This document shows positions 1 to 57,212 of a DNA stretch of 64,000 nt, piece after piece. Source of the stretch: Anaerolineae bacterium (GTDB lineage Bacteria > Chloroflexota > Anaerolineae > Aggregatilineales > J027); the NCBI GenBank assembly GCA_021463865.1, contig JAJTXY010000011.1:1761-65760 (forward strand). The letters are read 5' to 3'. The notes beneath the pieces were generated by a model that saw only the letters and a program-made list of their open reading frames with translations, made no database searches and was not told where the DNA came from. Position numbers and translations under genes: made by a program. The first letter of the stretch is position 1, and every line of letters begins with the position of its first letter.

Positions 1-469
1 ACTTGATCGTGTCCTCATTCAGCCCGCGATTAAACAGATAATCCCGCGCTCTCCGACCCCGATCTCCCCACAGCGTCTTTTCCCCGACGGCGATAATCTC
101 CCGCGCCTCACTCTGCCAGAGACTATCCGGTGGCTCTCCTTTCGCTCCCCCTCTACTATTGGAGAGGGGGCCGGGGGGTGAGGTTCTTTGGATTGATTGC
201 CCATGTGGATTCAACCGCTCCACCGCCTCCCGATACTCCAACCCGTGAAATTTCATCACCCACCCAACCGCATCCCACCCCTGATTGCACGCACCAAAAC
301 ACCGCACGCCATCCTCCCACACCACCAATGAGTATCCTTTGCTCTCATTGTGCAGCGGACACTTATAGATATTATTCTTCTGGCTGTGATGATGGGGCGG
401 CCCCAAATCCGCCTCCACCACCTGCCGACAATCCAACCCCTTGATCCAATCAAACGCCTGCCTAGTCAT
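1..469 (-). CDS. DNA primase-like protein, N-terminal CHC2 zinc-finger part (partial, runs off left edge)
   Basis: Manual translation from ATG 469..467 is open to position 1. It reads MTRQAFDWIKGLD...YKCPLHNESKGYSLVVWEDGVRCFGACNQGWDAVGWVMKF...ARDYLFNRGLNEDTIK. The CPxHxE...CFGxC pattern resembles the DnaG/phage primase zinc finger. The ORF is absent from the ORF track because it has no stop in the window. Confidence 0.6.
   Translation of the reverse strand, partial: MTRQAFDWIKGLDCRQVVEADLGPPHHHSQKNNIYKCPLHNESKGYSLVVWEDGVRCFGACNQGWDAVGWVMKFHGLEYREAVERLNPHGQSIQRTSPPGPLSNSRGGAKGEPPDSLWQSEAREIIAVGEKTLWGDRGRRARDYLFNRGLNEDTIK
145..186. repeat. GC-rich palindromic repeat, copy 1 (CCCCCTCT-N8-AGAGGGGG followed by GGGGGGTGAGG)
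   Basis: Inverted repeat seen directly. It shares its architecture with copies at 4508, 8407 and 57151. It lies in-frame in the primase ORF, translated ...SPPGPLSNSRGGAKGE... Confidence 0.6.
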
Positions 470-474
470 CACCA

Positions 475-894
475 TCACATACCCCCATCTTTCAGCTTCT
501 CCAATACCCGCCGAAATTTGAGAAATGCCCGTGCCAATTCCTTATGCCCGTTAATCGTCCCACGCACATCCATCCACACCCCCGGCGAAAGCACTGGCGC
601 GATAGCTTCCACGTGGTCATATTTGGCGACCAAAGCCTCTGCACTGTCCAGCGGGATATTCATCGCCACAATCGCCACTGCCTCAATCATTTCTTTGGCC
701 CCCATCTCATCAACCGTCAGCCCTTCCCACGAGGCCAGCGCGAAATCTTCTTTGCTGATGTGCCGAATCTCATTCCCGACCTGCACCATGTACACCGGGC
801 CCGGTTTGTTCATCATGAACCCCGGCAGGATGGAGACGACAAACGCCTCCTCCCCCGTCTTTAGCTGATACTTCTGTCCGCCACGAATCTCCAT
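475..894 (-). CDS. hypothetical protein (139 aa)
   Basis: ORF with protein-like composition in the operon orientation. Its stop lies 5 nt before the primase ATG. Confidence 0.5.
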   Translation of the reverse strand: MEIRGGQKYQLKTGEEAFVVSILPGFMMNKPGPVYMVQVGNEIRHISKEDFALASWEGLTVDEMGAKEMIEAVAIVAMNIPLDSAEALVAKYDHVEAIAPVLSPGVWMDVRGTINGHKELARAFLKFRRVLEKLKDGGM

Positions 895-1005
895 TATCAG
901 AATGACCTTTCTTTGAATCCTAATCCTCTAACCCACGCGCGGCATCTTCGATGTTCCCGATCTTCTCTTCGACCATCTTAGTCACTTCGATAGTCCTCTC
1001 GTCCC

Positions 1006-1461
1006 CTACCAACCGAGCCACTTGCAGCATTCCCCCGCTGCCGCTACGTTTTCCAGAATGGCGATCTTTGCCCGCAGGCTGCCATTGGGTTTCCCTTTCG
1101 GTGTAATGGGGGAGGTAATAGTCGCCTTCGACCCATTACCATTGGACGGCTTTTCTTCTGGCAAGGTGAGATCGTAACTATCTCGAATCTCAAACTGCCA
1201 ATCGGCACTCCGCTTTCGTCCCCCACCCGGTTTGCGTCCCGGCTTTGGCCCCGGTTTCCGCTCTGTCCCAATTAGCTCAATCAATTCGCCCTCGGTGCAT
1301 TCCAGTGCATCTGCCAAAGCCTCAATATGTTTCGTGGGCCGTGTGCCTGAAATCCACTGCGTAACCTGCCCCGAACCCACGCCAATCTTCTTCGCCAGTT
1401 GGTTCTGATTCATGTCCAATTCCGCCAACCGGTCTTTGATGAATTCTCCTAATGCGCTCAT
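1006..1461 (-). CDS. XRE-family helix-turn-helix DNA-binding protein
   Basis: MSALGEFIKDRLAELDMNQNQLAKKIGVGSGQVTQWISGTRP is a typical Cro/C1 HTH. I chose the internal ATG at 1461, which overlaps the upstream stop (TGATG). The C-terminus is basic and Gly/Pro-rich. Confidence 0.7.
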   Translation of the reverse strand: MSALGEFIKDRLAELDMNQNQLAKKIGVGSGQVTQWISGTRPTKHIEALADALECTEGELIELIGTERKPGPKPGRKPGGGRKRSADWQFEIRDSYDLTLPEEKPSNGNGSKATITSPITPKGKPNGSLRAKIAILENVAAAGECCKWLGW

Positions 1462-2003
1462 CACTTCCCCTCCAACCGGATAATCCCCGGCGTGCCATGC
1501 ACCAATTCCCGCGCAATCGTGTTTAACATCACCATCGCGGCGACGGCGGGTTGATTGGCCGGATGCCCCACGATGTAACACACCACACAATAGACCGTCT
1601 TGCCTTCATGCAGCGGGATATTCACCTCCGCCCATTCCGACTCAAAATCTTCCGCGTCCAAATGCTCGACCTTCACCCCCTGCTCATTGAAGGTCACGCG
1701 CCGATACAATTCGATATAGGCCGGTTGATTCAATAGCAGCCGCCTCTTAGCTTCCTCGGCTTCCTCCAAAATGATGGTTTCAACTTCCGCCGTATCTTCT
1801 AAATCATCCGACCATGAATCATCGGCCCAGCCCACGATGCGCGGATCATCATTCACCTGCACATTCACCGCGATTCCCTTCCACAGATAGCCCCCGCACC
1901 GAGGACATTCCGGCGCTTCCGGCACTTCATCCAACGACACGACCTCGACGGCACATTTCGCACCGCAGTGTTCGCATGTCTTTTCAATAATCTCAGTCAC
2001 CAC
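1461..2003 (-). CDS. zinc-ribbon protein (hypothetical)
   Basis: N-terminal CEHCGAKC...CPRCGG forms two CxxC pairs. The gene sits in the operon. Confidence 0.5.
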   Translation of the reverse strand: MVTEIIEKTCEHCGAKCAVEVVSLDEVPEAPECPRCGGYLWKGIAVNVQVNDDPRIVGWADDSWSDDLEDTAEVETIILEEAEEAKRRLLLNQPAYIELYRRVTFNEQGVKVEHLDAEDFESEWAEVNIPLHEGKTVYCVVCYIVGHPANQPAVAAMVMLNTIARELVHGTPGIIRLEGK

Positions 2004-2516
2004 TCACGCTCCTAAACTCAATAGATCTAAAATCCGATTGGAAAAGTCCTGTTGTAAGTCGCATTCTGTCAACACAAGCACCTTCATCCGCCGGGCCAGC
2101 GCCTTGACTTTCTGGCGGTCCCGCTCTGCATGAAACTGGTGTGCATAGAATCCATTGACCTCAATCGCCAACTCCCGCCCATGATGGGAGACGTGGAAAT
2201 CCACCAGATACACCTTGCCGCCGCGAACCTTGAACCACCATTCGCGCTGATAATAAAGTCCAAGCTCGTCCAACTTCTGGGCCACCAGCTGCTCCAAATT
2301 CGAGGGGTTGGCCCACCGATATTTTTGCATCTGCTGGACGGCGATCTTCTCTCCATACTTAGCTTTCGTCGCTGCCCATCCTTTCGGCGCAATGTTCCGG
2401 TTATGACACACCTTGCAAGTCTTAGACCGTCGTGCATTGCTTGGATGAACCAATCGCACTTGGCCGCATTGGGAGCAGATGACTTCTACTTTTTGGCCTT
2501 TTTTAGAACCAGCCAT
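2004..2516 (-). CDS. PD-(D/E)xK-type endonuclease-like protein (DUF559/Vsr-like) with N-terminal Cys4 motif
   Basis: The C-terminus YLVDFHV...LAIEVNGFYAH...ERDRQK resembles the D...E-x-N/K core of DUF559/Vsr nucleases. CSQCG...CKVCH is N-terminal. Start chosen at MAGSKKGQ. Confidence 0.45.
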   Translation of the reverse strand: MAGSKKGQKVEVICSQCGQVRLVHPSNARRSKTCKVCHNRNIAPKGWAATKAKYGEKIAVQQMQKYRWANPSNLEQLVAQKLDELGLYYQREWWFKVRGGKVYLVDFHVSHHGRELAIEVNGFYAHQFHAERDRQKVKALARRMKVLVLTECDLQQDFSNRILDLLSLGA

Positions 2517-2533
2517 CCGAAATTTTTCTCCAA

Positions 2534-2609
2534 TTCCGTCAGTGCTTTTGACACATGACACTTGACGAAATTTCCGTCAGTTGTCAAAACCACTGACACT
2601 TTTTTCGAT
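2534..2609. repeat. Two tandem 38-bp direct repeats (TTCCGTCAGT-N11-xTGACACTT), iteron/operator-like
   Basis: TTCCGTCAGT occurs at 2534 and 2572, and (A/C)TGACACTT at 2555 and 2593, exactly 38 nt apart. The repeats lie in the only sizeable intergenic gap inside the module. Confidence 0.6.
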
Positions 2610-2611
2610 TT

Positions 2612-4210
2612 TTAAATCAGCCGATACCGATATTTCCCGTTGCCAAATTCCTCGCCGGTGATAACTTGATCCATCAGCAGCGCATTAATCGCCGCCTTTG
2701 CATCCTGCCGGGGAATAGAGGTGCCTCGATAAATATCCCGTTCCGTCTGTGGCATCGCCGCACTACGCAGGAAATCAAGTATCCGGTCTTCATTCCGAAT
2801 GTCCCGATTCCGTCCAAGCTCCGTAATCAACCGGTGGGCTGATTCCCGCCACCGCTCGACCACCTGTTGAGCCAGCGCCCAATGCCCAATCTTGACCCGC
2901 ACATTTTTGTTGTCGTTATTTAAGATCCAATCCGTCGCGGCGATCTGGATTGCGACCTTCAGCACCATGACAGCAAACCGTCCATAGTTCCCGCGCATCC
3001 GTTCATCCAATCCCGAATCTGGTGCCGTGAATTGGTGCATCGCTTCAGCATACGCATTGAATCGTCGAATTACTTCCGGCTCTGCGCTTGCCGAAATCGC
3101 GTGCAATTCACCCGCTGGTGAGTCACCATCATCCAGCGCTTCGAGTGGTCGCGGATGTGGCAGCCGGCGATCCAAGTCTTGCAGGATAGAGAGAACCGAT
3201 GTGGGTGGGTCAAAGTGAACATCTTGCCTGCCGCTCGGTTGCCAGTGGATAACCTCATTCTCTGGTGTGCAGAGCGCGAAGCGTGCAAACAGTCCATCTT
3301 CCCATTCGCTCCCATTGGTCAGTCCTGCGAGCCGAGCCGGGGTTGTGGCGCCGAGGATGCTCAGATACGCCTGCCGAACGACCAGCTTCCCCATGCCGAG
3401 CACGGCCCGTTCATACACGTCCGGTGCATCATAGAAATTCATGACCACTTCCGCGAACCCCTTCATGTAATCCTTTTGGGAAAACAAAGTGGAGGCCTCG
3501 TCTACCACAATCCCCCGCTGCGCCGCATACGCCCGTCCTTTGTCCTCAATCGTCTTTTGGAAGGGTGATAAATCTTCGTAGTTGCTAACCGAGTTCCCTG
3601 CCATCTGCGAGAGAATCATTTCTGGCGTCGCCTGTGCTGCGAGTAGCAGGTGTGAAGCTGCTGACCGTGCCAGCGTCTCAACTGCCCTTAGCCCGGTGGA
3701 TTTTTTGTAATACGTCGTCGGGGCCACCCACAACACATAGAGGTTTGGATAGATGTCGGCAAAGTCCAATCGTAGGCTGATCCGCCGTGCAATCGTCAAC
3801 CCCAGCGCCCACAGTCCCCCCGATTCGAGGAAGATCGGGCTGGTCATGCTGGCCCGCTGCTTGGCCCATTCCATGTATCGGTGAAGCCACCAACCGCACT
3901 TCTCCGCCGCGACCAAATCCTCCTCATTCAGCTTGCAGGTTTCTGGCAGCGCTGGTACATGGATATGCTTTTTCTGGATCACCGGCACGGGCGGGGGGTC
4001 TTGTGGGTTAATCTCAAAAATCCGCCCCACGAACGAATCTCCCCACAACTGCCGGATCGCCTCAATCCGTTCTCGAAGCAAATCTTGATTTCCCCCGATC
4101 TGCTCCAAAATCATTCGCACAAAGGGATGGACGGGGAGGTCATCGGTTGGCATCCCCACCAGCGCCCGTGCCAGTGCATACGCCTCCGTCTGCCCTGCGA
4201 TAAGTGTCAT
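2612..4210 (-). CDS. large replication-associated protein (possibly DUF3987/primase-associated helicase-like)
   Basis: 532-aa ORF sitting between the partition and nuclease genes. The family assignment is from memory of DUF3987-type proteins only. No clear Walker A motif was seen. Confidence 0.4.
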   Translation of the reverse strand: MTLIAGQTEAYALARALVGMPTDDLPVHPFVRMILEQIGGNQDLLRERIEAIRQLWGDSFVGRIFEINPQDPPPVPVIQKKHIHVPALPETCKLNEEDLVAAEKCGWWLHRYMEWAKQRASMTSPIFLESGGLWALGLTIARRISLRLDFADIYPNLYVLWVAPTTYYKKSTGLRAVETLARSAASHLLLAAQATPEMILSQMAGNSVSNYEDLSPFQKTIEDKGRAYAAQRGIVVDEASTLFSQKDYMKGFAEVVMNFYDAPDVYERAVLGMGKLVVRQAYLSILGATTPARLAGLTNGSEWEDGLFARFALCTPENEVIHWQPSGRQDVHFDPPTSVLSILQDLDRRLPHPRPLEALDDGDSPAGELHAISASAEPEVIRRFNAYAEAMHQFTAPDSGLDERMRGNYGRFAVMVLKVAIQIAATDWILNNDNKNVRVKIGHWALAQQVVERWRESAHRLITELGRNRDIRNEDRILDFLRSAAMPQTERDIYRGTSIPRQDAKAAINALLMDQVITGEEFGNGKYRYRLI

Positions 4211-5817
4211 TCTGACACCTCACGTTTTTTTGTCTTGTGTTCCGTATCAAACTCGATTGCGGTGTCTTCTGCCAACGCCAGCGCCTCTGCCACTGCCTCT
4301 TCCACCTTGCTGTGCCACGTCATAAAATTAGGCAGCCCATAACCATGTGTCGTGACCCACCGCCAAACCTCATCTTTTGTCAACCGTGTAAAGTCTCGGA
4401 TGAGCATCAGCGTGTCCTTATCAAACAATGGATCTGTGCTTTTGACTGGCCGCTCCCAGTCCCGTCCATCATACGGATCATCTTCTTCCTCGATGTCCGG
4501 CGTTTGATTCCCCTCTCCACTGAGTGTGGAGGGGGCAGGGGTGGGGATGTTCTGCGCGGTTGGTTTCGCAGGCGCTTCGGCTAGAACCAATTCATTCTCT
4601 GCGTAACGGCCCGCCTTCAGTACCACTTCGTAATACCACTGGCCGTCCTTTGCATTCCAATTCCGCACACGCGAAATCCGATCTTGCAAACCCCGTGCCA
4701 AAACATAATCCCCGACCTTGAATCGTGGTTGCGTCTGTGGAACACCTCGGTTGCTCGGATACTCAGGTCGATCTCCCATCGGATACAAACCCGCTGCTTG
4801 TGCCCGCTGCTCACCCGGCCCGCCAGCCGCACCAGAATCGCCTCCATTGGCTTTTGCTTCATCCTGTGTGCTAGATGACTCATCATCCGATACCGTCCAG
4901 TTCTGGACGGTATAGCTCGGCGGACGGATGAAATTTAAGACGGTGGTTAACTTCCAATTGCCATCATCCGCCTTCTCCCATGTCCGCAAATCAAGCCGCA
5001 AAAGACTCCGATATTCCCGTAACCGACTGGGGTTTTGTTCCCCCATCGCATTCATCAACTGCCCACCCTTGCCGCGCGGAATCCTCCACTGGTCGCCATC
5101 TGCCACCTGTGCATAAAACGCCTGATCGGTTTCGCACTCCTCATAGGCTTTCCATTCCACATCCGGGTACAGTTGCATCAGCAGTAGCGCGAATTGCCGG
5201 GCCTTCCCAATCGCATTGAGGCTAGACCGCTGATTGTTCTCCGTCGCCTGCCCCCATACGTCGTACTCCCCAACCTTCGCCGCGATCTTCTCCCACCGTC
5301 CATCCCCATAGAAATATTCCAGCAGATGAAACGCCAACCACCGCCGCTCCCCGGTCTCGATCTTGTACGTATCGCCGACCCGGTACACCGTGATGGGGTT
5401 CTTCAGCTTGTCCCGTTTGATGGATGCCGCCAGTTGGGTCGTCTGCATCAGGTTGTAGTAAACCGGAAAGTGCTCCGCCTCCAATTCACTCCCATCCTGA
5501 CCTTCCCCCTCTGCCTCAAGCAGCTTCTCCAGTGGAAAGGTCTCCTCGGTCTCCTCTTTGGCGATCCGCAGCCACGCGCCGAATAATTGCATCATGTCCG
5601 CCAGATTTGACGATCTCCACAACTTCCGAACCGCTGTCGGCATCGTCCGTCGCGGCTGACGAAAATCCGGCTGAATCATCTCAATCGAGATCGCCTCGAT
5701 AGTTAGCTTGTCAGAATTTATTTTCGACCAGTCCAATCCCGACAATTCACCATACGTCGCGGCATCCACTTCCGCCGGGTCCGCCCCAAAATTGAAACTG
5801 CCTCGTTTTTTTGCCAT
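4207..5817 (-). CDS. ParB/Srx-fold (ParB-like nuclease domain) protein
   Basis: The N-terminus IEMIQPDFRQPRR...NPITVYRVGDTYKIETGERRWLAFHLL matches ParB N-terminal domain motifs. The gene directly follows ParA with an overlapping stop/start. Confidence 0.7.
   Translation of the reverse strand: MAKKRGSFNFGADPAEVDAATYGELSGLDWSKINSDKLTIEAISIEMIQPDFRQPRRTMPTAVRKLWRSSNLADMMQLFGAWLRIAKEETEETFPLEKLLEAEGEGQDGSELEAEHFPVYYNLMQTTQLAASIKRDKLKNPITVYRVGDTYKIETGERRWLAFHLLEYFYGDGRWEKIAAKVGEYDVWGQATENNQRSSLNAIGKARQFALLLMQLYPDVEWKAYEECETDQAFYAQVADGDQWRIPRGKGGQLMNAMGEQNPSRLREYRSLLRLDLRTWEKADDGNWKLTTVLNFIRPPSYTVQNWTVSDDESSSTQDEAKANGGDSGAAGGPGEQRAQAAGLYPMGDRPEYPSNRGVPQTQPRFKVGDYVLARGLQDRISRVRNWNAKDGQWYYEVVLKAGRYAENELVLAEAPAKPTAQNIPTPAPSTLSGEGNQTPDIEEEDDPYDGRDWERPVKSTDPLFDKDTLMLIRDFTRLTKDEVWRWVTTHGYGLPNFMTWHSKVEEAVAEALALAEDTAIEFDTEHKTKKREVSE
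4508..4551. repeat. GC-rich palindromic repeat, copy 2
   Basis: ttcccctctccactgagtgtggagggggcaggggtggggatgtt is nearly identical to copy 3. It lies in-frame in the ParB-like CDS, translated NIPTPAPSTLSGEGNQ. Confidence 0.7.
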
Positions 5818-6605
5818 TACCGAGCCATCTCCATTTCCGCTTCAAATCGTTCAACAAACCCTGCCCAATCCTTCGCCGCCTGTGAGCTCGGCGCATATGT
5901 CCAGATCGGTTCTTGCACTTGTGCCGCTGACGGCCAATCGGTGGAGAGGTTGATCGGCGCCCACACCAGATCACCAAATTGATCCTCCAGAGCCGTGAGG
6001 TTATCTGCATGATTGCGTGTGCCTGCCCGGTACATCATCGGCAAGATTCCCAGTTCGCGGATCATTTGACCCCCTGCATGAGACCGCCGACCATTCGCCT
6101 CTTTAACGTGTTTCATCGTCTCCATCAGGCTATCCAGCGAGTTATATTCCAACTCAGTCAGATAGATCACCCAGTCCGCCGCCATCAAAATCGCACTGTG
6201 CAAAAGTGATGGGGTGGGTGGGGTATCAATCACCACCTGATGAATCACCTGTGCCAATTGCCGCAGCCGGGTATCCAGCATCCACACGTCTGCCATCATC
6301 AGCGGGATGCCGCGTGTCTCAACATTGCTAGGCACGCAGTACAGATTTCCCCCACCGCCATACACCTCTGGGGCCACCTGTCGCAGCACCTTTTTCCACT
6401 GCCCGTCTTCCTCGTCTGCCCGGATCAGCAGGTTATAGAGACCAGCTTGTTTGGGCAGCCGCATGGCCCGTGTCGCGTGCCCCTGTGGATCGGCATCCAC
6501 TACCAGCGCACTTTGACCCGCCGAGGCCAACCACATGGCTAAATGGGTAGAGATCGTCGTTTTTCCGATCCCGCCCTTCTCACCAATTCCTACGCCTACT
6601 TTCAT
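5817..6605 (-). CDS. parA: ParA/Soj-family partition ATPase
   Basis: Deviant Walker A GEKGGIGKTT, plus ALVVDADPQGHAT. Confidence 0.9.
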   Translation of the reverse strand: MKVGVGIGEKGGIGKTTISTHLAMWLASAGQSALVVDADPQGHATRAMRLPKQAGLYNLLIRADEEDGQWKKVLRQVAPEVYGGGGNLYCVPSNVETRGIPLMMADVWMLDTRLRQLAQVIHQVVIDTPPTPSLLHSAILMAADWVIYLTELEYNSLDSLMETMKHVKEANGRRSHAGGQMIRELGILPMMYRAGTRNHADNLTALEDQFGDLVWAPINLSTDWPSAAQVQEPIWTYAPSSQAAKDWAGFVERFEAEMEMAR

Positions 6606-6715
6606 GACAAATCTCCTATTCGATTTTTATGCGCTTCCAACGCTTTTTTGATATGATTAAGATGCCAATCCGGAAGGGTTTGGTAGGATACCGGAGCTAA
6701 CCCCTCCGGTTGTCT

Positions 6716-6976
6716 TCAACTATTTTTGTTGCGTGTCTTTCCAAACGGCTCCAAGCACCGTGCGACATCTTCCATCAGGCCTTGCGCCACCCGATTAAGT
6801 TCGATCACTCCGTTGATGACCGGGGTATCGGCTACTTCTTCGGCCTGTGCATACAGCGTCTGGGCCTGCACCACAATTAAGTCCATCTTTGCCGCCAGTT
6901 CGACCAGCGCCATCGGGTTATTCCGCGTCTTCTTCGCCATCTTCCCCGTCCTCACCTTCGTCTGGCCGCATCCCAT
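6716..6976 (-). CDS. hypothetical small protein (start uncertain)
   Basis: ORF in operon orientation. Possible starts are at 6940 or 6913. Confidence 0.35.
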   Translation of the reverse strand: MGCGQTKVRTGKMAKKTRNNPMALVELAAKMDLIVVQAQTLYAQAEEVADTPVINGVIELNRVAQGLMEDVARCLEPFGKTRNKNS

Positions 6977-7610
6977 AAAAATCCGGGTCAGCCTTCGCCA
7001 TGAGTTCCTTCAGTTTCAGATAGACCGCTTCCATGATGTCCACATTCTGCTTGGTAATCCGCAGCGGATTTGGGATCGTGTTGTATTCACTCAGTCGCAG
7101 GATCAAAAACGCCGTGTCATACACGTCCGGCACCGCCGCGTTATCCACCAACAGCCCGAAAACGGAGGCCAAGTTCTCAACAAAATCATCACCAGCGACG
7201 TTTTCTGCCCAGCTTTCATATAGATAGGTGCTGAGTGTCTCTTCAATGTCCTCCACCGCTGCCAAAACTTGGGGGTTGTCGGTATCCATCCAATCTTCCA
7301 GCGCCTCAACAATTTCTTCAGCCTTTTGTTCGGCCAATTGCTGAAGCGAAATCGCCTCGTCTCGTTGTTCCAGCGCTGCCGCAACCATCATCCGGCCATC
7401 CTCAATGACCTGTACAAATTTCTCTTCGATGGCGCCCACCATCTCGATAGACAAAATGTAGGCATCCTCGTCCGGCATCTGATCCGAGATGACGGCTTTG
7501 AGGTTATCCAACAACGTCCCGACCACTGCCGGCAGATTACTTTGGGTCTCTTGGGGCTGCTCGTCCGTCTGAATATTAGGCTGCTCACTCACCTTGCACC
7601 GCCTTCTCAA
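6918..7610 (-). CDS. hypothetical acidic protein (start possibly GTG 7592)
   Basis: Highly acidic ORF. GTGAGTGA overlaps the upstream stop. Confidence 0.45.
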   Translation of the reverse strand: MRRRCKVSEQPNIQTDEQPQETQSNLPAVVGTLLDNLKAVISDQMPDEDAYILSIEMVGAIEEKFVQVIEDGRMMVAAALEQRDEAISLQQLAEQKAEEIVEALEDWMDTDNPQVLAAVEDIEETLSTYLYESWAENVAGDDFVENLASVFGLLVDNAAVPDVYDTAFLILRLSEYNTIPNPLRITKQNVDIMEAVYLKLKELMAKADPDFYGMRPDEGEDGEDGEEDAE

Positions 7611-8100
7611 GCATCTTGGTCAATTCGCGGATCGCCGTCTCTTCATCCAGTTCCATATTCAGAATCTGATTGAAAAGCGTGTCCCATTCTTTGGAACTCT
7701 CGCCCGTCATTTCGGCGAAGGTCTCCGCCAGATCATTGATCGTCATGTCCGCAGCTTCGGCAAATAACTCCGCCGGATACTGCTCTTCATAGTAGGCCAG
7801 CATCCCGTTCGCGTCGTCGAGCTTCTGGGCCACATAGCCAAGCTCGTCCGCGATCTTGTCTCGCTGCTCTTCCATTTCGAGCGCATAGGCCACCGCTTCA
7901 TCCCGTTGTTCAAGGATGTCGCGCATAAATTCCGCCGCTTCTTGGCTGAATTCTGCAACGGCCACCTCCGCACTCTCGACGATGGAGATCGCCACATCCA
8001 GCGCCTCTCCCCTCATCTGCGACGCTAAAAACTGCTTCAGCGTCTCCGTCTGTGTGACGACCAGCGCCAGTTTGTCGTGCTGATCCACTCCTACATTCAC
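7585..8100 (-). CDS. hypothetical acidic coiled-coil-like protein
   Basis: ORF in the operon with a 4-nt overlap with the upstream gene. Confidence 0.45.
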   Translation of the reverse strand: MNVGVDQHDKLALVVTQTETLKQFLASQMRGEALDVAISIVESAEVAVAEFSQEAAEFMRDILEQRDEAVAYALEMEEQRDKIADELGYVAQKLDDANGMLAYYEEQYPAELFAEAADMTINDLAETFAEMTGESSKEWDTLFNQILNMELDEETAIRELTKMLEKAVQGE

Positions 8101-8885
8101 TGTGCAACCTTCTCCTTCTGCTGTTGCCTACGCTCCGCCTTCCGTGTTTCATACCGCTGGCGAAGCTCCAGATTTGCGTTATCAATCGCCTGCTGGGTTC
8201 GTGCTTCTAGGTCTTCTGCTTCTGCCTCCTTAAATCGGGTTGCTTGGACGATCTCAAAACAAGCCGGGTCGCCCGGCGGAATAATCAAAATCCTGCCCTT
8301 GCCATCCGGATCAAACGCCTTCGACACCCCCCCCGGCGCATTCTTTTCGATTGCGGTTGCCTTCCGAGAAACGAATTTCTGTCGGTCTGAATTGGCGGGC
8401 TTTTCATTCCCCTCTCCACTCAGTGGGGAGGGGTTAGGGGTGGGGATGTTTTCCGGCTTCGGCTCCGGCTTGGGTTGCGGATACGGCACACCAATACCGG
8501 GTATGGGATTCGGCGGCGATGATGGGCAGTTCGGATCAGTCACATATCCCGCTGCCTGCAATTTCTCAATCTCCGCCTTGGCCTTGGGGTCAATGTGTCC
8601 CTTGCTGGCCCGCCGACGTGCCACCCGTATTTCTGCCAATGCCTGTGCTTCTTCGCGCTGGGCATCCGTAACCGTCGTCGCCTTGTACATCACATCCGCA
8701 AACGCCGCCCCGTCCAACCGAGGTTTGGGTGCAGGCCTCGCCGCGACCATTTCCGGCGCTGGGGGCAGATAATTGCCAAACAACTTCATGGCAGCCGCGA
8801 ACCCGGCCTCATATCCCGCCGTGAACCCAACGCCGAACCCAGCATCAAAACTGGGTTTATAAACAACTTCTCGCCCTGTATTCAT
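8097..8885 (-). CDS. hypothetical protein with Pro-rich linker (first gene of module)
   Basis: 262-aa ORF with RBS GAGAGGA before its ATG. It contains repeat copy 3. Confidence 0.5.
   Translation of the reverse strand: MNTGREVVYKPSFDAGFGVGFTAGYEAGFAAAMKLFGNYLPPAPEMVAARPAPKPRLDGAAFADVMYKATTVTDAQREEAQALAEIRVARRRASKGHIDPKAKAEIEKLQAAGYVTDPNCPSSPPNPIPGIGVPYPQPKPEPKPENIPTPNPSPLSGEGNEKPANSDRQKFVSRKATAIEKNAPGGVSKAFDPDGKGRILIIPPGDPACFEIVQATRFKEAEAEDLEARTQQAIDNANLELRQRYETRKAERRQQQKEKVAQ
8407..8450. repeat. GC-rich palindromic repeat, copy 3
   Basis: ttcccctctccactcagtggggaggggttaggggtggggatgtt. It lies in-frame, translated NIPTPNPSPLSGEGNE. Confidence 0.7.
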
Positions 8886-10135: not shown

Positions 10136-10216
10136 GGGGCAGTGGCGAAATGGCAAACGCAGCAGTCTTAAAAACTGCGGAGGAAACTCTTGTGGGTTCG
10201 ACTCCCACCTGCCCTA
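10136..10216 (+). tRNA. tRNA-Leu (anticodon UAA), type II with long variable arm, no encoded CCA
   Basis: Hand-folded cloverleaf. Acceptor GGGGCAG/CTGCCCT, 3-bp D stem GCG/CGC, anticodon arm GCAGT-CTTAAAA-ACTGC, variable arm GGAGGAAACTCTT, T arm GTGGG-TTCGACT-CCCAC, discriminator A. Confidence 0.9.
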
Positions 10217-19548: not shown

Positions 19549-19912
19549 GTAAAAAACAAAAATCCCTCTCATCTACCCTGTCAAGCCATTTTTAGCTGAC
19601 AGGAACGAAAGGGATTTCGCGGTACCATCCTGATTGATGACAATTCTCTAACAAATTTGGTGGACCTGAGGGGATTCGAACCCCTGACCTCTTCAATGCC
19701 ATTGAAGCGCTCTCCCAGCTGAGCTACAGGCCCATATCATCCACTTAATTGCCGCGTAACGTGCGCTTTTACGGCACAGCCTACTTTATCATTTCAACTG
19801 TGCGGCTCTGGGGCGAGTTTAGCCTTTTACGGTGTGTGTCGAGTCCACCATTGTTGGGTTTCCACCATCCCCAACTCGCTGCAACACTGGCCTACTATTC
19901 CCCTTCAAAGCC
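19549..19912 (-). promoter_or_regulatory. T-box riboswitch leader, Leu (CUC) specifier, with embedded tRNA-Ala gene
   Basis: Read on the minus strand. K-turn: GGC-UUUGAA-GGGG...CCCC-AGA-GCC. Specifier loop: 5' AAUAGUA and 3' AAA-CUC-G, with CUC at 19817-19815. AG bulge AGCGA; distal stem-loop GUUGGG-GAUGGUGGAAA-CCCAAC. T-box sequence AAUCAGGAUGGUACCGCG at 19635-19618. Antiterminator: CAGGA/UCCUG plus CGAAA-UCCC-UUUCG flanking the 7-nt bulge UGGUACC. Terminator: AAAUCCCU...CCUGUCA...UGACAGG...AGGGAUUU followed by a U-run. Confidence 0.8.
19658..19733 (-). tRNA. tRNA-Ala (anticodon GGC), CCA encoded
   Basis: GGGCCTG-TA-GCTC-AGCTGGGA-GAGC-G-CTTCA-ATGGCAT-TGAAG-AGGTC-AGGGG-TTCGAAT-CCCCT-CAGGTCC-ACCA. 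This is a perfect cloverleaf with the G3:U70 alanine identity pair. Confidence 0.95.
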
Positions 19913-30749: not shown

Positions 30750-32495
30750 ATGAGTGAGATTGCCAAGCATTCAACGGCAGCCGAGGCCGTAACCGCCCCA
30801 ACCACAGACCGTACTATCCCCCAAAGCGTCGCACAAAAACAAGATTTGGCTGTCGGCGCAGGGATTCAAGTTTTTACCCACCTCCTGCCGATGATTGGCT
30901 TATTATGGGGGTTCTTTTTGCTGCGTGCCCATATGATTGATGTCCACATGGCCTATTTTATTGATGAACTCAATCACGTCAGCCGCGCCCAAGTGGTCTG
31001 GTCGTTTTCGGACATCCAAATCAGCACCACCCCCAGCAAATTTCTGCTCTACTATTACATTGGCCTGTTCGACCTGCCGAACTACCTACCGGGATGGTTG
31101 GCTCGTACCCCCGTCGCCCTGTTTGCGATGGTTGGGGCAGCCTCGACCTATACCTTCACCCGCATGTGGTTTTCGCGTGCCGCCGCCCTCACCGCTGTAA
31201 TTGTCTTGGCCGTATTCCCATTCATGATCTTCCACGAGCGTATGGCCCTTACCGACCCTCTGACCGCCTCAATTGTCATGATGTCCCTGTGGTACAGTCT
31301 GGTGTTGGGGCGACATCCTTCCAAACGCGGGGGCCTCATTTTGGGTCTGATGCTCAGTTTTATGATTGCCGCCAAAATTTTGTCCGTCCCACTATTGGCA
31401 ATGCCCGTCGCGGTGATGGCCTTGTTTGGAAAAAAACCACTGCGCCTTAACCAGAATCTGCGCCAACAAGCCATCGAGTTATGGAAGATATACGGCCCAA
31501 CCTTGTTAAACGCTGCATTGGTGGTCAGCGTAATCTGGGGCATCATCATGGGCTTTTATTTTATACATGGCTTGTTATACCCCGAAGAATCCCGTCCACT
31601 GGTGGATGATTATCTCTATGGCCTACCCGACAGTGATACGGTGCTAGATGGCAACATGACCCATGTTGAAGAAGCCTTCCGCTACTTATGGGGGCCTCTG
31701 CTTACTGCCATAAGTTTTGTCGGCATTCTAGTGCTGGTGTGGAAACGCTGGCGTGAGGCGGCCCTGTTGGTAGGATGTATTCTTGCCGTGTGGCTACCGT
31801 TGATATTTGTGGCCCAGCGTCCCAATTCGCGTTATCTATCCGTCGTCGGTCATCTATGGGTCATATTGGCCGTGGGTGGGATGTTCATTCTCAAAGATGA
31901 ACTAAGCCGACTCTTGAAACCGACCCCGCTGAAGTTTGTCCAATGGACTCCCGTTGTTTTGTTGGGAGTATGGGTCGTGACCTTTGGCACACCTTTTAGT
32001 TATCAGAATATCTATGAGCCGACAGCCCTCAAATTACCCGAACGCGAAACACACGGCTACTTCCGCAATTTCACCGGATTTGCCCTACGTGATGCCCTCG
32101 AACTGGTCGAAACTCTACCTCCCATATCGGAAGGCACTAACCAGCGGGTGGTAGTAGGTATCATTCGTTCGTGTCCTTTCCTGCATTATCATATGGCAGA
32201 GGACGCCCCCATCAAGATTATCTGCCCGCCCGAACGCGAAGTGCGGCATGAAGTATTAAATGCTGCGCTAGAACAATACGGCGCGGTGTATATGTTTAAT
32301 GAACAACTGCCACCCCCGCGTACCGATCTCGTTTTGCATCGTGAACGGATAGCAGGTCGCGCCCAGTGGTTGGCAACCTATCACCGTCCGCATGGTGGTA
32401 TTATCGTAGACGTATATATCGTCTACCCCGGTCAAATTCCGGTTAGTGGTGTCCGTACCACCCCCGATGACGACGAGATACCTTTGGTTAAGTAA
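30750..32495 (+). CDS. GT-C fold membrane glycosyltransferase, GT39/ArnT-like, paralog 3
   Basis: IDELNHVSRAQ, FPFMIFHERMALTD and YHRPHGGIIVDVYIVYP. It shares long identical runs with paralog 4. Confidence 0.6.
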   Translation: MSEIAKHSTAAEAVTAPTTDRTIPQSVAQKQDLAVGAGIQVFTHLLPMIGLLWGFFLLRAHMIDVHMAYFIDELNHVSRAQVVWSFSDIQISTTPSKFLLYYYIGLFDLPNYLPGWLARTPVALFAMVGAASTYTFTRMWFSRAAALTAVIVLAVFPFMIFHERMALTDPLTASIVMMSLWYSLVLGRHPSKRGGLILGLMLSFMIAAKILSVPLLAMPVAVMALFGKKPLRLNQNLRQQAIELWKIYGPTLLNAALVVSVIWGIIMGFYFIHGLLYPEESRPLVDDYLYGLPDSDTVLDGNMTHVEEAFRYLWGPLLTAISFVGILVLVWKRWREAALLVGCILAVWLPLIFVAQRPNSRYLSVVGHLWVILAVGGMFILKDELSRLLKPTPLKFVQWTPVVLLGVWVVTFGTPFSYQNIYEPTALKLPERETHGYFRNFTGFALRDALELVETLPPISEGTNQRVVVGIIRSCPFLHYHMAEDAPIKIICPPEREVRHEVLNAALEQYGAVYMFNEQLPPPRTDLVLHRERIAGRAQWLATYHRPHGGIIVDVYIVYPGQIPVSGVRTTPDDDEIPLVK

Positions 32496-32579
32496 ACCAT
32501 ATCCAAAAGCGGTGAATCACTATAAATTCGTGGAAGGTCTATTCACCATTCAAAAGGGGCAGGTTGTCTTACAAACAGC

Positions 32580-34433
32580 ATGGGAGACAGCCAGATTATG
32601 AACACGTCAGGGAAGCAATCGGTTAATCAAACTATACTCTCTCCCGTATCCAACATCGTAATTGCGCCGCCGTTGGGCCATACCGGAGATATGACATCTC
32701 ATCCTACTTCGACTCTTCACCAACCCCATGCCGCCACTGCCGACTATGCTGGGTTGCGAGTCTTTGTTGGGATACTGCCTGTCGTCGCATTGCTGCTGGG
32801 TTTCTTTTTTGTCCGAGCGCATGTGATTGATGGCCCAATGCCCTATTTTGTAGACGAAATCCGCCACATCGAACGTGGGCGCATCGTCTGGTCATTTTCG
32901 GATACCCAGACCAGCACCACACCGGGCAAATTTCTCCTCTACTATTGGATCGGCCTATTTGATCTGCCCGATCATCTGCCGGGGTGGATGGCACGTACAC
33001 CCGTCGCCCTATTCACCATGTTGGGTGCAGCAGGGACATTCGCGCTGGCCCGTTTGATGTTTTCCCGCCAGACAGCCCTCCTTGCGCTTGCGATCTTGGG
33101 CGTTTTCCCATTTATGACCTTTTATGAGCGTCTCGCCCTAAGCGATTCCATGACGGCAGCATTGGTGGTACTCATGGCATGGTGGAGTTTAGTGGTTTTG
33201 CGCCAACCCACCGCCAAAAATGGTTTGATTTTGGGTGTACTACTGACGTTTATGCTGGCCGCCAAAATTCTCGCTGTTCCACTGCTCATCATGCCCGTCT
33301 TGGCGGTTATCCTGCTGAGTAAACACCACTTCATTTCGCGCTTTAATTTGAGCCAACAAAGCCTCGATGCGTGGCGGGCCTATCATAAACCTCTGCTGGT
33401 TGCCTTCGTGCTGACTGGAATCATTTGGGGGCTGCTGTTAGGCTTCTACAAATATCGCCAACTGACCGACCCCGCTGGTACAAGCCCAATCGTAGACCGC
33501 TACTTGTACGAAGGGGTGCGTTCCAATCTGCATATGGCGCAGCAGTTGTCTATCAGCGGACGCCTTATCAATAATTTGCGACGCACCGGGGAAGTGGTTT
33601 TTTATCTCTGGGGGCCGCTTTTGGCAGGGCTAACCCTTATTTCTTTGCCAGTTTTGGGGAAAAAGCAATGGCGTGAAACGGTGTTTTTATTGGCTGGGGT
33701 GGTGGTGTTATGGGGCACGGTTATTTTTTCAGCGGGCCGCCTCACGACGCGCTACCTGATGCCTGTGGGACACCTGTGGGTCATCTTAATCGCCGCCGGG
33801 GTGTTGGCACTGCAATCTGAGATGAATCAACGGCAGGGTCGTTGGCGCACCTTTGCATGGACACCCTTAGCTGTACTGCTGATTTGGGGCATTGCATTTG
33901 GTGGCCCATTCTATAATAAGTTGGTCGAAAATCCCGCCGAACTCGCCTTACCCGAACGCGACACCTACGAATATTTCCAGAACCAGACGGGCTATGCGGT
34001 GCGCGATGTTCTCCAAGATGTTGCCCAAATGCCCATTATTTCGCGTGATACCGATGTCCCGATTGTGTTTGGTATGGTCAGAACGTGTTCCTACCTCAGT
34101 AACCATATTTCGGCAGATGTATACAACCGCCTGCGGATTGTATGCAGCCCCGAATATACCGAATGGCCCGGACGGGATTGGCCCGATAACGTTATGCGTT
34201 ATACTTATCTCAATAACCTGTTAGCCGAACATGGCCCGGTTTATCTCATGATAGAAGAATTTCAAGAGGAAAGGGACAACCGCTTTCTCCAAATTGACCC
34301 GCGTATTTTGCAGGGACGTTTGGAATGGGTTGCCACCTACCACCGTCCCCATAATGGCGTACAAGTCAGCCTATATATCGTTCATCCACAAGGCCAACTC
34401 ATGAGCAATCTGCGGCCCTCACCGGAAAATTAA
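32580..34433 (+). CDS. GT-C fold membrane glycosyltransferase, GT39/ArnT-like, paralog 4
   Basis: VDEIRHIERGR, FPFMTFYERLALSD and YHRPHNGVQVSLYIVHP. Confidence 0.6.
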   Translation: MGDSQIMNTSGKQSVNQTILSPVSNIVIAPPLGHTGDMTSHPTSTLHQPHAATADYAGLRVFVGILPVVALLLGFFFVRAHVIDGPMPYFVDEIRHIERGRIVWSFSDTQTSTTPGKFLLYYWIGLFDLPDHLPGWMARTPVALFTMLGAAGTFALARLMFSRQTALLALAILGVFPFMTFYERLALSDSMTAALVVLMAWWSLVVLRQPTAKNGLILGVLLTFMLAAKILAVPLLIMPVLAVILLSKHHFISRFNLSQQSLDAWRAYHKPLLVAFVLTGIIWGLLLGFYKYRQLTDPAGTSPIVDRYLYEGVRSNLHMAQQLSISGRLINNLRRTGEVVFYLWGPLLAGLTLISLPVLGKKQWRETVFLLAGVVVLWGTVIFSAGRLTTRYLMPVGHLWVILIAAGVLALQSEMNQRQGRWRTFAWTPLAVLLIWGIAFGGPFYNKLVENPAELALPERDTYEYFQNQTGYAVRDVLQDVAQMPIISRDTDVPIVFGMVRTCSYLSNHISADVYNRLRIVCSPEYTEWPGRDWPDNVMRYTYLNNLLAEHGPVYLMIEEFQEERDNRFLQIDPRILQGRLEWVATYHRPHNGVQVSLYIVHPQGQLMSNLRPSPEN

Positions 34434-35368: not shown

Positions 35369-36013
35369 ATGCGGCAATTCGCTATCGCGCTCATATTAAT
35401 TTTGGCTCTGGTGGCCTGTGATAAGGACGACCAACCGACGAAAATAGCACCGACGCCAACGCCAACCGTGAGTGTTATCACCAATTTTACTGGCCCCATT
35501 CTTAATTCTGGCGGTGGGTCAGGCGAAGCGTGTGGTGAAGCTGATCCCAATAATCCTGACGCCGCGTGTGGTGTGCCGGGAATATCCTCTATCGAAAATT
35601 CTGGCAGTAGCGCCCCCCTGCCACTTACCGAACAAACCGCTTTTGGCCTGACCATTGGCGTGCCAGACGGATTTTCCCCCGTCGAACTAAGCAACCGATT
35701 ACTGATCAGTGCCACCGACCCCGCCAACACCCCCGGCGAATTCACCGTCATTATTCGGCGTGTCACGGCGGATGAATTAACAGGCTATCTCGACCAGATT
35801 GCCGATTTGGATGCCACCAAGCAGTTTGACCGCCAAAATGCGAATGGTTCAATGACAGGCTATACCATTCCCTATGGAGAACGGGGTGAGGTTGCGGTAT
35901 TTGACTTAGGTGAAGGGCAGTCGTTATTTATCAATGGCTTTGCTGCGCCGGGCTATTGGGACACCTATAGCGCGACTTTTGAAGCGATGTTAGATTCGCT
36001 TCGTTTAGCTTAA
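35369..36013 (+). CDS. putative lipoprotein
   Basis: The signal MRQFAIALILILALVAC carries a lipobox-like LVAC. Confidence 0.6.
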   Translation: MRQFAIALILILALVACDKDDQPTKIAPTPTPTVSVITNFTGPILNSGGGSGEACGEADPNNPDAACGVPGISSIENSGSSAPLPLTEQTAFGLTIGVPDGFSPVELSNRLLISATDPANTPGEFTVIIRRVTADELTGYLDQIADLDATKQFDRQNANGSMTGYTIPYGERGEVAVFDLGEGQSLFINGFAAPGYWDTYSATFEAMLDSLRLA

Positions 36014-36053: not shown

Positions 36054-36125
36054 CTGGGAGACCTGGACTCGAACCAGGACTGATGGATCCAAAGTCCACT
36101 GTTCTGCCGATTAAACTATCTCCCA
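36054..36125 (-). tRNA. tRNA-Gln (anticodon UUG), no encoded CCA
   Basis: TGGGAGA-TA-GTTT-AATCGGCA-GAAC-A-GTGGA-CTTTGGA-TCCAT-CAGT-CCTGG-TTCGAGT-CCAGG-TCTCCCA-G. An extended -10 (TGGTAAAAT) lies at 36148-36140. Confidence 0.9.
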
Positions 36126-57150: not shown

Positions 57151-57210
57151 GCCTCATCCTCGTGTGCCCCTCTCTCAAAGCGTTTGGAGAGAGGGGTTGG
57201 GGATGAGGGC
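57151..57210. repeat. GC-rich palindromic repeat, copy 4 (full nested palindrome, intergenic)
   Basis: GCCTCATCC-tcgtgtg-CCCCTCTCTC-aaagcgtttg-GAGAGAGGGG-ttgg-GGATGAGGGC. Confidence 0.7.
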
Positions 57211-57212
57211 TT

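Follow-up and report, generated by a model that had tools for sequence, protein, structure and literature searches.

Triplex-motif repeats in the coding linkers of a Chloroflexota-type replication-partition module and their relatives around DUF559 nuclease genes

Results

The window analysed here, a 64-kb stretch of an Anaerolineae bacterium contig (JAJTXY010000011.1, positions 1,761 to 65,760), opens with a Chloroflexota-type replication-partition module and carries four copies of a G/C-rich repeat, all on the + strand, three of them in coding sequences and none of them paired. Copy 1 (146–186), of the layout CCCCCTCTAC-tattg-GAGAGGGGG-cc-GGGGGGTGAGG, lies in a primase ORF (Zn-ribbon/Toprim; N-terminal part at 1–477, − strand, with the remainder beyond the window start), between the CHC2 zinc ribbon and the Toprim domain, with its C-rich strand as the sense strand of the ORF, and encodes SPPGPLSNSRGGAKGE. 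Copy 2 (4508–4551) encodes NIPTPAPSTLSGEGNQ in the C-terminal linker of a 536-aa ParB_N-like protein (4207–5817, − strand), and copy 3 (8407–8450) encodes NIPTPNPSPLSGEGNE in a predicted disordered linker of a 262-aa protein of unknown function (8097–8885, − strand). Copy 4 (~57164–57211) lies in the intergenic spacer that separates a His_Phos gene from leuD, within a leuC-x-leuD-leuA cluster, and has a longer stem with a tail-like segment flanking both sides. The first-pass annotation had already placed a diverged copy in the primase linker past the zinc finger, near-identical copies of ~44 nt in two unrelated ORFs and a fourth copy between genes of the leu operon, and all these placements hold, copies 2 and 3 differing at 4 of 44 nt and sharing 84% identity over 63 nt (family D4). 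Its statement of a shared frame is true for copies 2 and 3 only; copy 1 is read in another.

The pattern CCCCTCTN{5,20}GAGGGGN{1,6}GGGRTGRGG matched exactly these four sites in the window and nothing in 100 shuffles of it, and a sequence-agnostic, rule-based finder of purine-motif triplexes returned exactly the same four copies and none in five shuffles; none is expected by chance. A partial match at 35876–35891 was rejected as a further copy. A fifth copy, also intergenic, lies 1.6 kb outside the window start, immediately past an ORF of 76 aa that also belongs to the module (L121 10041–10079). Within the window, the module holds three copies in 9 kb and the chromosome one in 55 kb.

The repeat is the known G/C-rich intrastrand triplex motif (TM, class II of Holder et al. 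2015; BoxC/PIT in E. coli) and not a new element. TMs are 35–45 nt long and consist, in order, of a C-rich arm, a loop with the complementary G-rich arm, a 2–4-nt spacer, and a further G-rich segment in mirror symmetry to the G-rich arm; the window copies read CCCCTCTCC / GGAGAGGGG / GGGGTGAGG, which defines their register, or the variant GGGGAGGGG / GGGGTGGGG. A C-rich arm of at least 8 nt, a loop and a complementary G-rich arm were found in all four copies, followed after a 1–6-nt spacer by a mirrored G-rich arm compatible with G.G-C, A.A-T and T.A-T triads with at most one mismatch, and each copy is predicted to fold into a hairpin on both strands alike, with energies between −8.7 and −11.4 kcal/mol (z −1.8 to −4.1). 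Bases of the third strand change together with those of the second arm (A/A 315, G/G 26, mixed 5, in counts that ignore phylogeny), and the G-rich strand, as single-stranded DNA, can form a predicted hairpin with a purine-motif third strand. Triplex formation by ssDNA in vitro was demonstrated by CD and NMR for TM_ECO only, and a triplex in vivo was not found (Holder et al. 2015, NAR 43:10126, PMC4666352).

The window copies do not match the consensus of TM_ECO sensu stricto (BoxC), CCCTCNCCC N3-6 GGGNGAGGG N3 GGGNGAGGG; their membership of the TM family follows from the architecture and from the E. coli sequences of Holder et al. 2015, from which they differ by a register shift only (CCCCTCTCC/GGAGAGGGG/GGGGTGAGG versus CCCTCNCCC/GGGNGAGGG/GGGNGAGGG). 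Common to both are the four-part order described above, with a central T in the mirrored G-rich segment, a length of 34–45 nt, and hypervariable flanks; across the family as a whole, TMs are multi-copy, dispersed and found as inverted pairs. By contrast, TM_ECO/BoxC/PIT occur in Enterobacteria rather than in a Chloroflexota-type module, and the E. coli copies were analysed as intergenic (Holder et al. 2015, PMC4666352), while three of the four window copies lie in coding sequence. Earlier work on TMs, by Bachellier and by Hoyne & Maher, is cited in Holder et al. 2015 (PMC4666352). The origin and spread of BoxC/PIT/TM have been unexplained since the 1990s.

The genic copies sit in disordered, indel-rich inter-domain linkers, with residues 119–193 of the 262-aa protein at a pLDDT below 50 (AF2) and with indel-rich orthologue alignments for the linkers of the ParB-like protein, the primase and the 262-aa protein. 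Among orthologues of the 262-aa protein, the number of TMs is zero, one, a different one, or two: TM1 (copy 3) occurs alone in the window and in L132, a distinct TM2 alone in L127, both in tandem in L133, and neither in L134. TM1 and TM2, adjacent in one linker, differ from one another in reading frame among the orthologues, and the tandem TMs of L133, with equal tail and C-rich arm, encode IPTPSPSPLREEG and TPPLAPPLTKGGERG from their different frames. TM1 is identical between the window and L132 at 37 of 39 positions, including 13 of 13 third-codon positions, with 59% identity in the rest of the gene. A distant ParB homologue has its TM elsewhere in the linker. These frame differences, the copy-number variation, the identity at third positions and the intergenic copies together show that the repeat is a hairpin-forming element conserved at the DNA level and tolerated in coding sequence, as the first-pass annotation had proposed, and not a protein motif. 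Such tolerance follows from the conserved part of the TM being stop-free in five of six frames, in which it encodes a flexible peptide rich in Pro, Ser, Leu, Gly and Glu.

The description of the copies as inserted is not supported for those in the primase and ParB-like genes: no clean empty site for either was present among the orthologues compared, and linkers of TM-less orthologues are of nearly equal length (27 versus 31 aa in the primase). Related modules on other contigs (L127, L132 and L133) carry TM copies at matching sites, copy 1 being identical in L127, so that a long residence in this host, also suggested in the first-pass annotation, does not follow. A lineage of ~65% identity has no TM across 9.5 kb. 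Identity to L127 begins at window position ~4548, the tail edge of copy 2, where the alignment passes from unalignable to 95.6% over 2 kb; on this alignment, copy 2 sits at a recombination junction that makes the ParB-like gene a mosaic. With some eight block boundaries in all, the coincidence of one of them with a TM has a chance expectation of roughly 5–10%. The TMs of the window probably travel passively with the replication-partition module rather than serving as functional sites of it.

In wider searches the pattern matched at least 120 stretches each of viral and of genome DNA, from many phyla, with inverted TM pairs occurring in other genomes. In a family-wide sample, ~40% of TMs were intergenic versus 7% expected, and many others were genic, with PriA, peptidase M19 and fucosidase among the Pfam-verified hosts. 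TMs pointed both ways relative to genes, 51 versus 41 in one wide sample and 29 versus 48 in another, near what the single stop-containing frame predicts. Gene calls in the foreign loci were crude (longest-ORF greedy).

Matched inverted TMs also flank genes for a DUF559 (Vsr-like PD-(D/E)XK) nuclease, forming cassettes of 440–630 nt. All seven DUF559 domains in TM-selected loci were TM-flanked, and in 80 loci picked solely by DUF559 homology, a sample biased towards relatives of the LeuRS-borne query, a TM lay within 200 nt of 57 of 82 domains, at a density of 2.78 per kb near the domain versus 0.11 per kb elsewhere. Within a cassette, the left TM is the reverse complement of the right one, variant-specific bases included, and differing cassettes bear differing TM variants, the triplex logic being kept in all. 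In-frame cassettes occur at two sites of LeuRS and in IleRS, MetRS, MetH, a helicase and methylases. At these same LeuRS sites, what relatives carry ranges from the full cassette through a TM pair lacking the nuclease and a solo TM to no element at all, and at another position in the LeuRS of L317 a solo TM constitutes a clean +10-aa insertion compared with two other LeuRS sequences. The 3′ end of the E. coli DUF559 gene ycjD lies inside a degenerate TM, with BoxC/TM_ECO no. 9 located 168 nt downstream. A literature search of incomplete coverage found no paper connecting DUF559 or ycjD with TM repeats, a link also not made by Holder et al. 2015 (PMC4666352). Six-frame HMM scans detected no DUF559 in the window or in L121–L134, and the window copies are solo TMs, which makes their tie to a nuclease one of analogy.

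In the DUF559 cassettes the TM tails point either outward (the majority) or inward, and a simple transposon with terminal inverted repeats would not be expected to show both. A PD-(D/E)XK nuclease alone is not a transposase, and TMs could be target sites of the DUF559 nuclease instead of terminal repeats.

Discussion

Taken as a whole, the copies are very probably members of the TM family that behave as DNA-level linker elements, with the solo copies as putative cassette remnants. Solo copies would be the remnants or non-autonomous ends of a small mobile cassette made up of a DUF559 gene between matched inverted TMs, and those of the window are, on our analysis, probably non-autonomous relatives of such cassettes. 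The DUF559 nuclease may break DNA at TMs, with repair copying from other TM-bearing sites; break repair from TM-bearing templates would spread and homogenise TMs, and the same process could also give rise to the local hypervariability and the recombination junction. A more specific proposal, which we put forward tentatively and at somewhat less than even chances, is that BoxC/PIT/TM form the inverted termini of a minimal mobile element whose only gene is that of the DUF559 nuclease. Under this proposal the cassette would enter linkers or loops of conserved proteins in frame, its TM ends doubling as flexible-linker codons, nuclease-less pairs and the solo TMs of the window and of E. coli would be non-autonomous derivatives, and ycjD would be the resident nuclease of BoxC in E. 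coli.

We regard an RNA-level element, that is, an mRNA hairpin acting on stability, processing or translation, as very improbable. The hairpin is predicted to fold on the sense (C-rich) strand too and the module copies are all oriented alike relative to transcription, but no Rfam family matched, the orientation to genes is mixed in the wide samples, the third segment suits a purine-motif triplex, which does not form in RNA, and PIT elements showed neither promoter nor terminator activity (Holder et al. 2015, PMC4666352).

A REP/REPIN-type element moved by a RAYT (an HUH tyrosine transposase), akin to the mobile or REP-like element suggested in the first-pass annotation, is highly improbable. 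The REPIN-RAYT systems, reportedly described by Bertels & Rainey in 2011, do resemble TMs. A TM is likewise a short GC-rich palindrome extended on one side by conserved sequence, TMs occur as inverted pairs in other genomes much as REPINs are mobile as inverted doublets, and they flank a single nuclease gene as REPs flank RAYT. However, the GTAG or CGTC head is absent from the TM copies, the TM-linked enzyme is a DUF559 PD-(D/E)XK nuclease and not an HUH Y1 transposase, no Y1 transposase (Y1_Tnp) was found among the module ORFs, and REPs are extragenic whereas TM copies are often genic; we know of no in-frame RAYT cassettes.

Four to five copies in one orientation within ~10 kb encoding ParA, ParB and primase might suggest a cis-site of the module, such as a ParB centromere (parS), iterons or a primase/single-strand initiation signal, but this is very improbable given that TMs also occur in the chromosomal leu cluster, in unrelated genomes and in viruses, that close modules have anywhere from 0 to 2 copies at a site and the 65%-identical module none, and that the copies lie inside coding linkers and do not adjoin parAB. 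That protein selection keeps a Pro-rich linker peptide, IPTPxPSxLSGEG, is scarcely credible, for although copies 2 and 3 encode a near-identical peptide in one frame and the TM-less orthologue P0245 has a loosely similar one (PQPPSSEPTIEGK), the differing frames of the L133 tandem and of copy 1, the intergenic copy 4 and fifth copy, the invariant third-codon positions of TM1 and the non-coding TM DNA of many phyla all speak against it.

The likeness to Rickettsia palindromic elements (RPE) drawn in the first-pass annotation is fair as a phenomenon and is a resemblance of behaviour only. RPE, reportedly described by Ogata et al. in 2000, are likewise palindromic repeats lying in frame inside unrelated protein genes, tolerated since they add surface or linker peptide. 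They are ~100–150 bp, AT-rich and restricted to Rickettsia, and to our knowledge have neither a triplex-type third segment nor an associated nuclease; the window copies, ~40 nt long, GC-rich and with relatives in many phyla, do not belong to them. RPE are mentioned in PMC1779305. Inteins and homing endonuclease genes (PMC2874743) resemble the DUF559 cassettes only, in which a selfish nuclease likewise sits in frame in essential genes (aaRS, MetH). The cassettes, unlike inteins, lack a Hint splicing domain, and the DUF559 insert is apparently retained in the host protein between TM-encoded flexible peptides.

The window illustrates that a repeat described as intergenic can live in genes as an in-frame disordered linker. 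TMs mark recombination breakpoints between related mobile modules, which bears on module mosaicism, and contigs break at TM copies during assembly. For annotation, TM-derived peptides such as PLSxxGEG and GEGxGVR are DNA artefacts and not motifs. If the TM–DUF559 association is true, it would provide a candidate mobilising enzyme for BoxC/PIT/TM, a testable function for E. coli ycjD, and an example of intein-like, non-splicing parasitism of essential genes by a nuclease gene.

The window repeat belongs to the G/C-rich triplex motif family

The window repeat is, judging by its sequence architecture, a member of the published family of intrastrand triplex motifs (TMs). Each of the window TMs, in the CCCCTCTCC register, carries a tail, GGGGTGAGG or GGGGTGGGG, that is the mirror image of its 3′ stem arm, GGAGAGGGG or GGGGAGGGG, which is the signature predicted for a purine-motif intramolecular triplex, and all copies also fold as a hairpin on either strand. 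The E. coli form, TM_ECO (BoxC or PIT), reads CCCTCNCCC N3-6 GGGNGAGGG N3 GGGNGAGGG and occurs 3610 times across 262 proteobacterial genomes, and cyanobacteria carry many G/C-rich TMs (Holder et al. 2015, PMC4666352). Single-stranded TM_ECO DNA forms a triplex in vitro, a triplex was not detected in vivo, promoter and terminator activity are lacking, and the flanks are hypervariable between strains (PMC4666352). The window element is built alike, but its register is shifted relative to TM_ECO. In a set of 346 non-redundant elements drawn from other loci, the second arm has a variable position that co-varied with its mirror position in the third segment (A/A 315, G/G 26, mixed 5; counts that ignore phylogeny), while the base in the first arm is fixed by the scan pattern, so that the G.T-wobble asymmetry between the first and second arms is not readable from its matches. 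Scanning the window and six loci rich in TMs against Rfam returned tRNAs only and no family for the TM.

Re-reading of the sequences bore out the repeat copies reported by the first-pass annotation, and the G-rich strand is the window + strand in all four. Copy 1 (146-186, +) lies in a Zn-ribbon/Toprim primase ORF running off the window start, copy 2 (4508-4551, +) in a ParB_N-like 536-aa ORF (4207-5817, −), copy 3 (8407-8450, +) in a 262-aa ORF without Pfam match (8097-8885, −), and copy 4 (57164-57211, or 57167-57208 in narrower bounds, +) between a His_Phos gene and leuD, within the leuC-x-leuD-leuA cluster. Copies 2 and 3 differ at 4 of 44 nt (repeat family D4, 84% identity across 63 nt), copy 1 is further diverged, and copy 4, which has a longer stem than the other copies, recurs unchanged in a second metagenome contig, L337. 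A tail-like segment stands on both sides of the copy 4 hairpin (GCCCTCATCC...hairpin...GAGGATGAGGC), making a fold-back possible on either strand. The pattern CCCCTCTN{5,20}GAGGGGN{1,6}GGGRTGRGG matched exactly these four copies in the window and nothing in 100 dinucleotide-preserving shuffles; a rule-only triplex finder using no fixed sequence likewise returned exactly the four copies, with none in five shuffles. A further candidate at 35876-35891 was rejected as a weak chance partial match inside an ORF. The window also holds, at 30750-34433, adjacent paralogous ORFs of 581 and 617 aa (repeats D1/D2, ~71% identical, 1890-nt spacing).

The mobile module at the window start encodes, in minus-strand order, the 262-aa ORF, two small ORFs, ParA, the ParB-like ORF, a DUF3987 protein, a putative nuclease, a 180-aa ORF, an HTH protein, a 139-aa ORF and the primase, with a GC content of 54.5% versus 51.1% in the remaining window. 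tRNA genes were located at 10136-10216 (+), 19661-19733 (−) and 36054-36125 (−), the first of them ~1.2 kb from the last module gene, with a mevalonate-diphosphate decarboxylase gene intervening. A fifth TM lies 1.6 kb outside the window start, immediately past the stop codon that ends a 76-aa ORF, at 10041-10079 of L121, a Logan contig whose sequence matches the module exactly. L121 starts within copy 3 (1-40) and its fifth copy lies ~50 nt from the contig end; these ends suggest that short-read assemblies break at the repeat.

TMs are conserved as DNA and tolerated in frame

The 262-aa family allowed a conserved DNA element to be distinguished from a conserved protein motif. In the window and in the related module L132, the copy termed TM1 (copy 3) is read in the frame C-CCC-ACC-CCT and encodes IPTPxPSPLxGEG, whereas L127 has only TM2, a different copy read in the frame CC-CCA-CCC-CTA and encoding TPPLTPPLTKGGERG; in L133, TM1 and TM2 stand in tandem and the length exceeds that of L132 by 33 nt, and the 59% identical L134 lacks a TM. 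TM1 of the window matches that of L132 at 37 of 39 positions, with third-codon positions identical in 13 of 13 cases versus 59% in the rest of the gene (0.59^13 ~0.001). This family comparison settles the question: copy-number variation, independence of frame and third-codon identity uphold the proposal that the repeat is a DNA element which coding sequences tolerate in frame, and the conservation is at the DNA level. As a correction to the first-pass annotation, a shared frame holds for copies 2 and 3 and fails for copy 1, which is read in another frame.

The TM peptide spans residues 146-160 of the 262-aa protein, inside a stretch (119-193) that an AF2 model, built on a shallow alignment, gives pLDDT <50 and no secondary structure, and a distant ParB homologue, L336, carries its TM at another linker position. 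At the position of the TM peptide, codons 130-143 of P0245 in L134 (GCA_009612955.1) encode PQPPSSEPTIEGK, with DNA ~46-50% identical to TM1; this peptide could be a decayed TM or an ancestral linker. The ~65% identical module lineage (L128 and L130) has no TM in 9.5 kb.

Insertion sites, residence and a recombination junction

Insertion of the repeat is not demonstrable for two of the three genic copies, those in the primase and ParB genes, for which comparison with TM-less orthologues gave no clean empty site. Clean gains were found elsewhere: TM2 adds 33 nt to L133 relative to L132, and one LeuRS is 10 aa longer by a solo TM. The Pro-rich primase linker is 27 aa in TM-less orthologues versus 31 aa with the TM, a nearly equal length that leaves no clean insertion boundary, and the ParB region is not alignable to the closest TM-less orthologue because a neighbouring domain is also missing there. 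In both genes the TM takes up a linker already present, without visible addition. Long residence of the module in this host, also put forward earlier, does not follow, since the copies also occur in related modules and TMs are packed much more densely in the module than in the chromosome next to it.

A comparison of the window module with L127 (NCBI GCA_030837925.1) revealed an abrupt change of identity at a TM. Identity between the two modules is 85% in the left genes. For ParA and the N-terminal two-thirds of ParB, the DNA essentially cannot be aligned and the proteins are 47% identical, and from window position 4548 onward identity is 95.6% over 2 kb. The switch falls on the tail edge of copy 2, so that the swapped partition cassette ends at a TM. 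The swap (window 4548-6553 versus L127 2364-4407) places a distant homologue in otherwise 85-96% identical modules, and its other boundary lies ~50 nt inside parA. The chance expectation is ~5-10% for one boundary in about eight to meet a TM in this way; the junction is suggestive and agrees with the unstable flanks reported for TM_ECO (Holder et al. 2015, PMC4666352).

Distribution of the TM across bacteria and viruses

The pattern matched at least 120 viral stretches and at least 120 species-representative genome stretches. Among the matches listed, viral contigs often carried several copies, usually on the same strand, and the genomes included many Chloroflexota, Bacteroidota, Planctomycetota and Pseudomonadota (Xanthomonas, Rhodanobacter, Pseudomonas), together with Cyanobacteria, Gemmatimonadota, Acidobacteriota, Armatimonadota-type MAGs, CPR and Myxococcota. 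By a crude longest-ORF gene call, ~40% of the TMs among the matches listed were intergenic versus 7% expected from random segments, and about half lay within some ORF. TMs between or inside the domains of Pfam-confirmed genes (PriA, peptidase M19, fucosidase) indicate that genic TMs are not peculiar to the window. The C-rich strand is the sense strand for all TMs of this module family, and the wide samples showed mixed orientation relative to genes among the matches listed, which is roughly expected given that the conserved part has a stop in one of six frames only (the TGA in GGTGAGG).

TMs flank DUF559 nuclease cassettes

TMs and the Vsr-like PD-(D/E)XK nuclease domain DUF559 (PF04480) are strongly and reciprocally associated. 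Three of ten long ORFs with genic TMs, encoding LeuRS, MetRS and a Type ISP enzyme, contain a DUF559 domain in mid-protein, in frame and with inverted TMs on both sides, and all seven full DUF559 domains found by an HMM scan of the 120 TM-selected genome loci listed are TM-flanked. In the reciprocal sample, 80 metagenome loci picked by DUF559 homology alone with a 4-sequence alignment as query, and biased towards relatives of the LeuRS-borne query, a TM lies within 200 nt of 57 of 82 DUF559 domains, on both sides in 36, and TM density is 2.78/kb near DUF559 versus 0.11/kb elsewhere.

The flanking TMs are matched: left and right TMs are reverse complements of each other in 24 cassettes, down to variant-specific bases and often the loop, and the primary TM sequence differs between cassettes with the triplex logic kept in all. 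Units are 440-630 nt long, and all seven within large ORFs are congruent to 2 mod 3 by our own boundaries, while stand-alone units are mixed. Hosts include LeuRS (two sites), IleRS, MetH, an Upf1-like helicase and a DNA methylase, and in-frame loci were recorded at L156 6620-7090, L144 2110-2650 and L245 4546-5025, and at about position 2000 in each of L256, L268, L281, L295, L302, L304, L306 and L317. Across four aligned LeuRS sequences, site 1 holds a cassette in two, a nuclease-less TM pair in one and nothing in one, and site 2 a cassette in two, a solo TM in one and nothing in one; we regard this alignment as the most direct evidence for the DUF559 lead.

In E. coli K-12, the DUF559 gene ycjD (L255, NC_000913.3 1351204-1351760) ends in SPSP-stop within a degenerate TM. 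Downstream of ycjD come a duplicate of part of its 3′ end and then, at 168 nt, BoxC/TM_ECO no. 9, an arrangement suggesting that ycjD encodes the BoxC-associated nuclease. In the literature searched, no paper tied DUF559 or ycjD to BoxC, REPIN or in-frame insertion. The HMM scan found no DUF559 in the window or related modules. The window ORF 2004-2561 (−), of 185 aa, combines an N-terminal Cys4 zinc ribbon with a PD-(D/E)XK-like nuclease motif at the C-terminus (YLVDF...LAIEVNG...RDRQK) and has 186 homologues in the representative library; it looked DUF559-like by eye and gave just weak matches (DUF790 0.007, MTES_1575 0.03, Bax1 0.024, I-Bth0305I 0.19), and we do not claim membership.

The window finding itself falls within a known TM family, and the TM-DUF559 cassette is the most novel candidate reading. 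A minority of cassettes have TM tails facing inward, so the TMs could be the target of the nuclease rather than its ends. We speculate that the DUF559 nuclease cuts at TMs, possibly recognising a transient triplex or hairpin on single-stranded DNA, and that repair from other TM-bearing sites would spread and homogenise the motif. Solo TMs, the window copies included, may be non-autonomous derivatives or remnants of DUF559 cassettes.
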